Of a stretch of DNA of 64,000 bases, positions 487 to 676 are shown piece after piece (position 1 is the first letter of the stretch; every line of letters starts with the position of its first letter). The notes beneath the pieces are model-generated. The model saw nothing but the letters and a program-made list of their open reading frames with translations. It made no database searches and was not told the origin of the DNA. Origin of the DNA: Escherichia phage vB_EcoM_YN3; the sequence record PV763136.1. The stretch is one strand, 5' to 3'. Both the position numbers and the translations under genes were made by a program.

Positions 487-543
487 CTGACTGACATACT
501 GTGACATAACTGACACGATTGACATAATTGACATGCCTGACCG
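487..543. repeat. Tandem array of about 7 TGACAY units at 9-10 bp period
   Basis: Read directly: tgac(488), tgacat(492), tgacat(502), tgacac(511), tgacat(520), tgacat(529), tgaccg(538); inside ORF-free region. Confidence 0.7.
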
Positions 544-676
544 TTTACGCTCTCACTATTCACGCTATTACTATTCACTCGCTTTACTGTTTACATTCCT
601 GATAGTTTACATGTCTAATAGTTTACATAGATAACTGTTCACATACTTATCATTTACATGATTGACTGTTTACACA
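543..676. repeat. Iteron-like array of about 9 GTTTACAT/TATTCAC units at 15-16 bp period; DnaA-box-like
   Basis: Units begin near 543, 558, 573, 590, 606, 621, 637, 652, 668; GTTTACACA matches DnaA box TTWTNCACA at 8 of 9 positions. Confidence 0.65.

Follow-up and report, generated by a model that had tools for sequence, protein, structure and literature searches.

What are the two arrays of short tandem repeats that lie close to the start of the Escherichia phage vB_EcoM_YN3 sequence (record PV763136.1), and what might they do? From the sequence letters alone, the window (i.e., the whole stretch of 64,000 nucleotides that was analysed) had been predicted to carry, at positions 487-676, seven TGACAY units followed by nine units spaced 15-16 bp apart, in 1.3 kb free of open reading frames (ORFs). 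The regular phasing was taken to be typical of iteron origins, partition sites or arrays that titrate a DNA-binding protein. The repeats and the element that borders them on the right are as follows.

488-543, + strand: array 1, TGAC units in seven copies with 9-10-bp spacing, of which five are strict TGACAY.
543-676, + strand: array 2, nine units with the core A(C/a)T(G/a)GTTYACR and 15-16-bp spacing.
677-707, + strand: anchor GATATGATAAGCCATGACATTCGTTTGCATGA, conserved in all relatives, which closes the variable island on the right.

Both arrays are real and reproducible features, present at 487-676 as predicted and unmatched elsewhere in the window or in simulations. In array 1, TGAC starts at positions 488, 492, 502, 511, 520, 529 and 538 (spacings of 4, 10, 9, 9, 9 and 9 bp). 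The predicted seven copies stand as TGAC units, but the count was slightly generous for TGACAY: only the five units at 492-529, spaced 10, 9, 9 and 9 bp, are strict, and those at 488 (TGACTG) and 538 (TGACCG) are partial. All nine predicted units of array 2, which are of the GTTTACAT or TATTCAC type with the consensus ACTGTTYACR, were recovered and start at 543, 558, 572, 589, 605, 621, 637, 652 and 668, with spacings of 14-17 bp, mostly 15-16 bp. Independently, Tandem Repeats Finder reported 492-534 (period 9), 547-578 (period 15) and 589-628 (period 16). Array 1 packs five TGACAY into 45 bp and array 2 eight TTYACR into 135 bp, densities found nowhere else in the 64-kb window: on either strand, the next-best clusters of these lengths hold two TGACAY and three TTYACR, respectively. 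In 300 simulated 64-kb sequences (first-order Markov), five TGACAY or eight TTYACR were never attained. Moreover, six of the nine matches to the array 2 core CTGTTYAC in the 64 kb fall within positions 1-1100, and dispersed copies of the core are located at:

234-241, + strand: array 2 core CTGTTTAC, inside the terminal repeat described below.
379-386, - strand: inverted array 2 core, inside the same repeat; in the inverted pair I20 it is a 12/12 complement of 587-598.
1092-1099, + strand: array 2 core in the terminal non-coding region.

The predicted lack of ORFs also holds, as the longest within 1-1596 are of 86 aa (TTG start, 1342-1602) and 54 aa. At the far side of this region, an ORF of 61 aa (1417-1602, + strand), which overlaps a terminator hairpin at 1561-1578, is annotated in the phages ECP2309 and JLBYU08 and not in most relatives. 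The gene that follows (139 aa, 1597-2016, - strand) is missing from Gotham, FV3 and APCEc02, and a Pfam search with its protein gave no match.

Where in the genome do the arrays lie? Positions 1-1600 of the window match 119 phage records at 85-95% identity, all of them rV5-like (Vequintavirus), and comparison with the records that carry defined ends places two further features to the left of the arrays.

1-458: left direct terminal repeat (DTR), which starts with GGCGGACG and ends with AAAACTTGTC.
459-464, + strand: first TGACAC unit, directly adjoining the DTR end; predicted position of the right-end cut in the concatemer, CTTGTC/TGACAY (the slash marks the cut).

Specifically, base 1 of the window aligns with base 1 of Gotham (MT682716), for which 459-bp repeats are annotated at 1-459 and 136567-137025, and both ends of the ECP2309 record (PP464953) carry an exact 459-bp repeat with the same first and last bases as Gotham and the window. 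A four-way alignment sets the DTR at window positions 1-458 with AAAACTTGTC as its end, the boundaries in Gotham and ECP2309 corresponding to window positions 1 and 458, as expected of an exact, short DTR whose ends are fixed. Since the window shares its first base with Gotham and has the DTR at 1-458, the alignments indicate that it represents a Vequintavirus genome read from its physical left end, with the arrays immediately inside the left DTR. Defined terminal repeats of 459 bp and one specific packaging start have been described for Gotham (PMC7471380), and terminal redundancies of 458 bp were reported by Korf et al. for two other Vequintavirus members (PMC6563267). In conflict with this, two reports based on PhageTerm refer to Vequintavirus genomes as circularly permuted or headful (PMC8407724, PMC13211470); judging from the deposited records, we give more weight to their exact repeats than to these calls.

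The records and the DTR gave some additional observations. Among the 119 matches are 'Campylobacter phage' records that are also classified as Vequintavirus; 18 such records (MG0656xx, A142 etc.) are approximately 90% identical to the E. coli Vequintavirus region, are flagged UNVERIFIED and are probably mislabelled or contaminant assemblies. Within the DTR, TGAGAATnnnTATCATT occurs three times (12-28, 128-144 and 146-162). The run GAGAAT-AGTTAT-CATTAC resembles the Fur-box hexamer pattern, which we take to read GATAAT-GATAAT-CATTAT, and the phage KPP-1 has similar GATAA..TTATCATTTGAG repeats (locus L022, 2940-3161). The TGAGAATnnnTATCATT repeats may represent a site for a host factor or a phage protein, or chance in AT-rich DNA. 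Likewise, TCTAGACGTCTAAG at 328-341 includes the palindrome AGACGTCT, presumably identical to the MetJ-box consensus, and this may be chance.

Next we ask whether the arrays are kept among relatives. The segment from the DTR end to the conserved anchor CCATTCGTTTGCATGA (window 692-707) was compared in 19 genomes drawn from GenBank phage records; IMG/VR gave only four usable loci. In all 19 genomes and in ECP2309 (20/20) the DTR is followed directly by TGACAY, so that tandem repeats begin at +1 of the inner DTR boundary in every case and lie beside a terminase cut site, if the cut is placed at the DTR end, CTTGTC/TGACAY. In each of the 19 genomes GACAY-type units, mostly 9-11 bp apart, are followed by TTYACR units at 15-16 bp or multiples thereof (30-32 and 45-46 bp), and none of the 20 Vequintavirus genomes sampled lacks both arrays. 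Scanning the window and its relatives thus recovered the same motif cores, orientation and period throughout, with a copy number that varies: TGACAY is present in one to six copies and TTYACR in one to eight, FFH2 and LL12 having a single array 2 unit and FV3 and isim a single canonical TGACAY, and the segment from DTR end to anchor is 112-243 bp long. A single 16-bp unit separates Murica from JLBYU08, and some neighbouring units are near-identical including their spacers, e.g. TTTACAtgcttaatgg and TTTACAtgcttaatag, which argues for recent duplication.

Flanks at about 0.9 identity enclose the arrays, which form a hypervariable island. Mean pairwise identity among the 19 genomes (50-bp bins) is 0.87-0.96 in the DTR, 0.20-0.53 over 451-650 and 0.32 at 701-750, and it is approximately 0.85-0.97 over most of 751-1500 with one bin, 801-850, at 0.51. 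Within the island the loss of similarity is uneven. The four bases upstream of TTYACR (A-C-T-G), which were not part of the search pattern used to pick the units, carry 0.7-1.7 bits, compared to 0.1-0.2 bits for the spacers. In addition, the last four array 2 units align in phase in 17 distinct genomes with GTTYAC at ≥80% and variable spacers, an alignment to be read with the tendency of aligners to stack repeat cores in mind.

Turnover on this scale (112-243 bp, one to eight copies), together with neighbouring units duplicated along with their spacers, raises the possibility that the arrays are tolerated satellite DNA, that is, slippage-prone duplications in non-coding DNA next to a recombination-prone DTR, with no sequence-specific function. 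We regard this as unlikely, because, within arrays as well as between genomes, the spacers randomise around cores that are retained together with their four upstream bases, because TGACAY adjoins the DTR in 20 of 20 genomes with no sampled genome devoid of both arrays, and because extra conserved array 2 cores are spread in both orientations across the terminal 1.1 kb. Cores that are kept while spacers drift are what is expected of protein-binding arrays.

The other flank of the junction shows a comparable pattern, and other genera set limits to this conservation. All relatives compared have GCTGCCW/GGCGGACG at the left cut, and the flank upstream of this cut, which belongs to the right genome end, is hypervariable, with an identity of 0.24 at -60 to -10 (19 relatives). 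We searched this flank (locus L001, 5700-6000, and 19 relatives) for a tight tandem array and found none, only one to three copies of the unit CAGGAGYGCTGCC, which adjoins the left cut, and dispersed CCTGAAGAG (three or four copies) together with AAATATC motifs. For the Klebsiella phage KPP-1 (Mydovirus), the DTR has been mapped by coverage and PhageTerm to 116316-116829 (PMC9862379). Its start (GACGGAC) and end (TTGACAAGGAGAGAGAATTGTGT) are recognisably homologous to the Vequintavirus DTR ends, and no tandem array was found after this DTR. In A73 (Septuagintavirus), with its DTR unmapped, the junction is too diverged to compare. Among phages that share the cut sites, the motifs are kept throughout the genus with variable copy number and are absent in KPP-1. 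Since no array follows the homologous DTR ends of KPP-1, the arrays would lie outside the conserved core mechanism of the subfamily, and as judged from these genomes they appear to be a genus-level feature. Absence from a sister genus is also what the satellite interpretation would lead us to expect.

Downstream of the anchor lies a second prominent element.

748-905: large palindromic element, the arms of which begin with the array-1-like unit TGACATAAT; approximately 290 bp inside the DTR boundary.

Its arms form an 18-nt perfect inverted repeat (750-767 and 884-901), and the element is predicted to fold with -68.9 kcal/mol (z = -10.2). Positional counterparts are present in KPP-1 (L022, 2839-3044, with 21-nt perfect arms) and A73 (L024, 5911-6015, with 21-nt arms that are 90% complementary), and the arm sequences differ between genera with complementarity kept. 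All of the palindromes start with GACAY(W)ATAA, like an array 1 unit, and continue with GTCGC...CGCGCCA; that the array 1 unit recurs at the foot of a palindrome conserved between genera is a further point against satellite DNA. The palindrome could represent two terminators placed back to back or encode a small RNA; alternatively, it could take part in end processing as a DNA hairpin or cruciform. It is associated with the arrays by its position and by TGACATAAT, and a functional link is only putative. The palindrome lies between AT-rich stretches at 691-780 and 931-1020 (GC 0.22-0.25). It is also bracketed by a 20-bp direct repeat, GCCATGMCATTCGTTTGCAT, at 687-706 and 915-934 (direct repeat D9), part of the anchor GATATGATAAGCCATGACATTCGTTTGCATGA being duplicated at 915-934.

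TGACATAAT conforms to TGnCATAAT and can be read as an extended -10 element; TGACA would correspond to a -35 element. The arrays might then be clustered promoter elements for the host polymerase, or sites for host transcription factors, that drive inward transcription (for instance to draw DNA into the cell, as in T7) or titrate a host factor. Array 1 of the window does contain two + strand sites scoring 10/12, the arrays point inward from the genome end, and in T7 the early promoters A1-A3 lie just past the left-end arrays. Among relatives, however, + strand sites scoring ≥10/12 are missing from array 1 in 10 of 19 genomes, and in 8 of 19 from the whole of 400-800, a scan that reaches past the arrays. 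There is no + strand gene downstream for such promoters to serve, as the next genes run towards the end. The number of promoter-like sites in the region, 16 compared to 8.6 ± 2.9 in shuffles, is a modest excess, neither TGACAY nor TGACAYAAT is enriched genome-wide, and a search of 1-2200 against Rfam at E ≤ 1 gave no family match. A promoter cluster was rejected on the grounds that consensus sites in the arrays are not conserved among relatives, and we consider a promoter or transcription-factor role very improbable. The scan of the window for tRNA and tmRNA genes predicted none, and our search of the transcriptome literature for Vequintavirus yielded nothing usable. Structure formed by the arrays as single strands was likewise rejected: single-stranded DNA of 455-700 is predicted to fold no better than shuffles (z = +0.65). 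That neither a conserved structure nor a promoter was found in the arrays agrees with satellite DNA, while a uniform orientation and period together with a structureless single strand would fit binding sites in duplex DNA.

The original prediction named an origin of replication among its candidates. In such an origin, iteron-like sites would bind a phage initiator or host DnaA and unwinding would occur in the adjoining AT-rich DNA. Several properties of the locus agree with this: the repeats are direct and all in one orientation, 691-780 (GC 0.23-0.25) borders the arrays, a very stable palindrome separates the two AT-rich stretches, and the arrays are held in the largest non-coding region of the genome, as judged from the rV5 annotation, where 2.6 kb across the junction between two convergent gene blocks lack CDS. 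A secondary origin of T7 is likewise situated near the arrays at its left end. In rV5 the skew curves change within 104425-105475, which overlaps the array locus, but the authors ascribed this change to the direction of transcription (PMC3606486), and in the window as well GC and AT skew follow gene orientation, such that skew was discarded as an origin marker.

The repeats themselves do not resemble iterons, for which 17-22-bp repeats in a phase of about 11 or 22 bp would be expected; here the periods are 9-11 and 15-16 bp (9-10 and 15-16 bp in the window) and the cores are short (~6 and ~11 bp). The best unit had been reported to match the DnaA box TTWTNCACA at eight of nine positions. The match is real, GTTTACACA at 668 in the arrays and again at 236 being the only such occurrences of this sequence, but one-mismatch matches to TTWTNCACA in the window are at chance level (168 compared to 160 ± 11 expected, with one inside the arrays), and the resemblance is therefore uninformative. 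No perfect TTWTNCACA box is present in 1-1650, and on these two counts a DnaA-box cluster, and with it DnaA titration, was rejected. A match at 497-505 (TACTGTGAC) to what we take to be the nick-site consensus of phage tf was dismissed as a single match at chance level.

Nor do the surrounding genes point to an initiator. Polymerase, helicases and a methylase make up the larger left-arm proteins, the replication genes encoding a family-A polymerase and two helicases (gp4/DnaB-type and PIF1), with no recognised initiator. The neighbours tested included no recognisable gene for an initiator or for partition, and parA/parB-type genes are absent within several kb in the annotations of rV5, naswa and Murica, where the genes nearby code for small proteins lacking annotation. 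The phage has been described as lytic. A copy number that falls to one, and the lack of arrays in KPP-1, also speak against an origin.

What stood of the predicted phased-repeat mechanism is the generic pattern of a protein-binding array, with one orientation, conserved cores and drifting spacers, while the part specific to an origin or iterons is unsupported. The original prediction had itself named a place in a terminal repeat or packaging region as evidence against it, and the arrays come close to this, starting at the first base past the DTR. We consider an origin rather improbable, and retain it as an explanation on account of the AT-rich DNA and the strong palindrome just downstream of the arrays.

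The arrays were also compared with repeats at the ends of other phage genomes. T7 has an exact terminal repeat of 160 bp (from the T7 sequence) and arrays of CCTAAAG with a period of 13 (174-245 and 282-340), with a weaker array ahead of its right repeat. SP6 has arrays of period 12 at 219-318, phiKMV has only a weak array 144 bp past its 414-bp repeat, and the first 1200 bp of phiEco32, which we take to be another short-DTR phage, contain no tandem repeats. The arrays that flank the T7 terminal repeats were reportedly named SRL and SRR by Dunn & Studier in 1983, and to our knowledge no function of the CCTAAAG arrays has been proven. Our T7 comparison draws on the T7 sequence, the search for literature on SRL/SRR having returned no usable account.

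The rV5-like phage shares with T7 a short exact DTR with fixed ends (458 bp compared to 160 bp), and with T7 and SP6 imperfect, same-orientation, non-coding tandem repeats by the inner boundary of the left DTR. As in T7, the strong array is on the left-end side, and the repeats on the other flank of the junction are weaker, amounting in the rV5-like phages to one to three CAGGAGYGCTGCC units and dispersed CCTGAAGAG that fall short of a tight array. The differences are that the T7 array starts 14 bp after the DTR (+14) whereas the first rV5-like unit is directly at +1, that CCTAAAG shows no sequence similarity to TGACAY or ACTGTTYACR, that T7 has one heptamer as opposed to two motifs with two periods, and that the rV5-like phage is an unrelated myovirus. 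Given these motifs, the arrays are best seen as an analogue, not a homologue, of the T7 heptamer arrays, and the analogy would carry anatomy and not mechanism.

Other systems are similar in part. The R sites of lambda cosB, the hexamer repeats of P1 pac and SPP1 pacL/pacR are terminase recognition arrays located by cut sites. They resemble the rV5-like arrays in having repeated short motifs by a terminase cut site, there bound by the small subunit, but are fixed in number and spacing and essential, while the arrays studied here vary from one to eight copies and their binding is putative. Iteron origins (lambda ori and those of the plasmids P1, F and R6K) likewise have tandem direct repeats by AT-rich DNA, and differ in unit length and phasing; the rV5-like region is without a recognised initiator gene or DnaA boxes. 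The injection-stop region of T5 is rich in repeats and palindromes, non-coding and near the inner part of the left terminal repeat. Its likeness to the rV5-like locus consists in repeat- and palindrome-rich non-coding DNA by a terminal-repeat boundary, at the end that may enter first; however, the T5 region is inside a 10-kb repeat, and we know of no rV5-like phage with two-step DNA transfer.

Terminase cut sites generally adjoin the binding site of the small subunit (PMC3896407), and T7-type concatemers are cut sequence-specifically at the repeat end, and how the second repeat copy is completed still awaits explanation (PMC3350473). For these reasons, and arguing by analogy, we favour the reading that the arrays act as additive protein-binding sites of the concatemer junction, marking the DTR at its outer edge for right-end cutting or duplication, although we would put its chance at somewhat short of even. 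The position, anatomy, core conservation and turnover of the arrays are directly observed; protein binding, the identity of the protein and a packaging role are what we infer.

On this junction model, replicating genomes would be joined head to tail through a single DTR copy, and the packaging enzyme would cut GCTGCCW/GGCGGACG for the left end and CTTGTC/TGACAY for the right end. The arrays, which would begin at the right-end cut and run away from the DTR, may serve as multi-site landing pads in duplex DNA for one or two sequence-specific proteins, the likeliest candidate being the recognition (small) subunit of the terminase or a partner protein. Arrays so bound would mark the outer edge of the DTR and thereby promote right-end cutting, duplication of the DTR at each junction, or both. 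Because many sites would act additively, copy number could drift by slippage without loss of function. The gene for the large terminase is not among the large ORFs of the 64-kb window. Against a junction role are the low copy numbers tolerated (down to one unit), which indicate that the number need not be fixed, and the lack of arrays in KPP-1 in spite of its homologous DTR ends. For these two reasons satellite DNA and an origin are kept as alternatives, each of them doubtful. The start of phiEco32, free of tandem repeats, and the PhageTerm calls of permuted or headful genomes also count against a junction role.

A broader proposal, which we advance as speculation and hold to be unlikely, is that flanking arrays are a convergently evolved part of T7-type packaging. 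Copies of a cut-site motif would recruit terminase, or block replication or branch migration, such that one DTR is copied per junction, and the TGACAYAAT-based palindrome of Vequintavirinae about 300 bp inside the DTR could prime DTR duplication as a hairpin or cruciform. If this were true, the natural variants with one to eight copies would make the 40-year-old question of the T7 arrays directly testable.

By analogy with the DTR-flanking arrays of T7-like phages, the rV5-like arrays appear to be a further instance of a known and still unexplained type of element. How short-DTR phages recognise the boundary and regenerate the second repeat from a single-copy junction is a standing question (PMC3350473). 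Collections for therapy and biocontrol make wide use of rV5-like phages, and most databank records of these phages are circles opened at an arbitrary point; in the records that we inspected the 2.6-kb junction is uninterpreted, or carries only unlabelled repeat features or small hypothetical ORFs. CTTGTC/TGACAY provides a simple sequence landmark of the DTR boundary by which rV5-like genomes can be oriented, and the presence of arrays at this boundary explains a recurrent hotspot of assembly and alignment. Finally, the relatives constitute a natural allelic series, from one to eight copies, that can be used to ask whether flanking arrays act in packaging.
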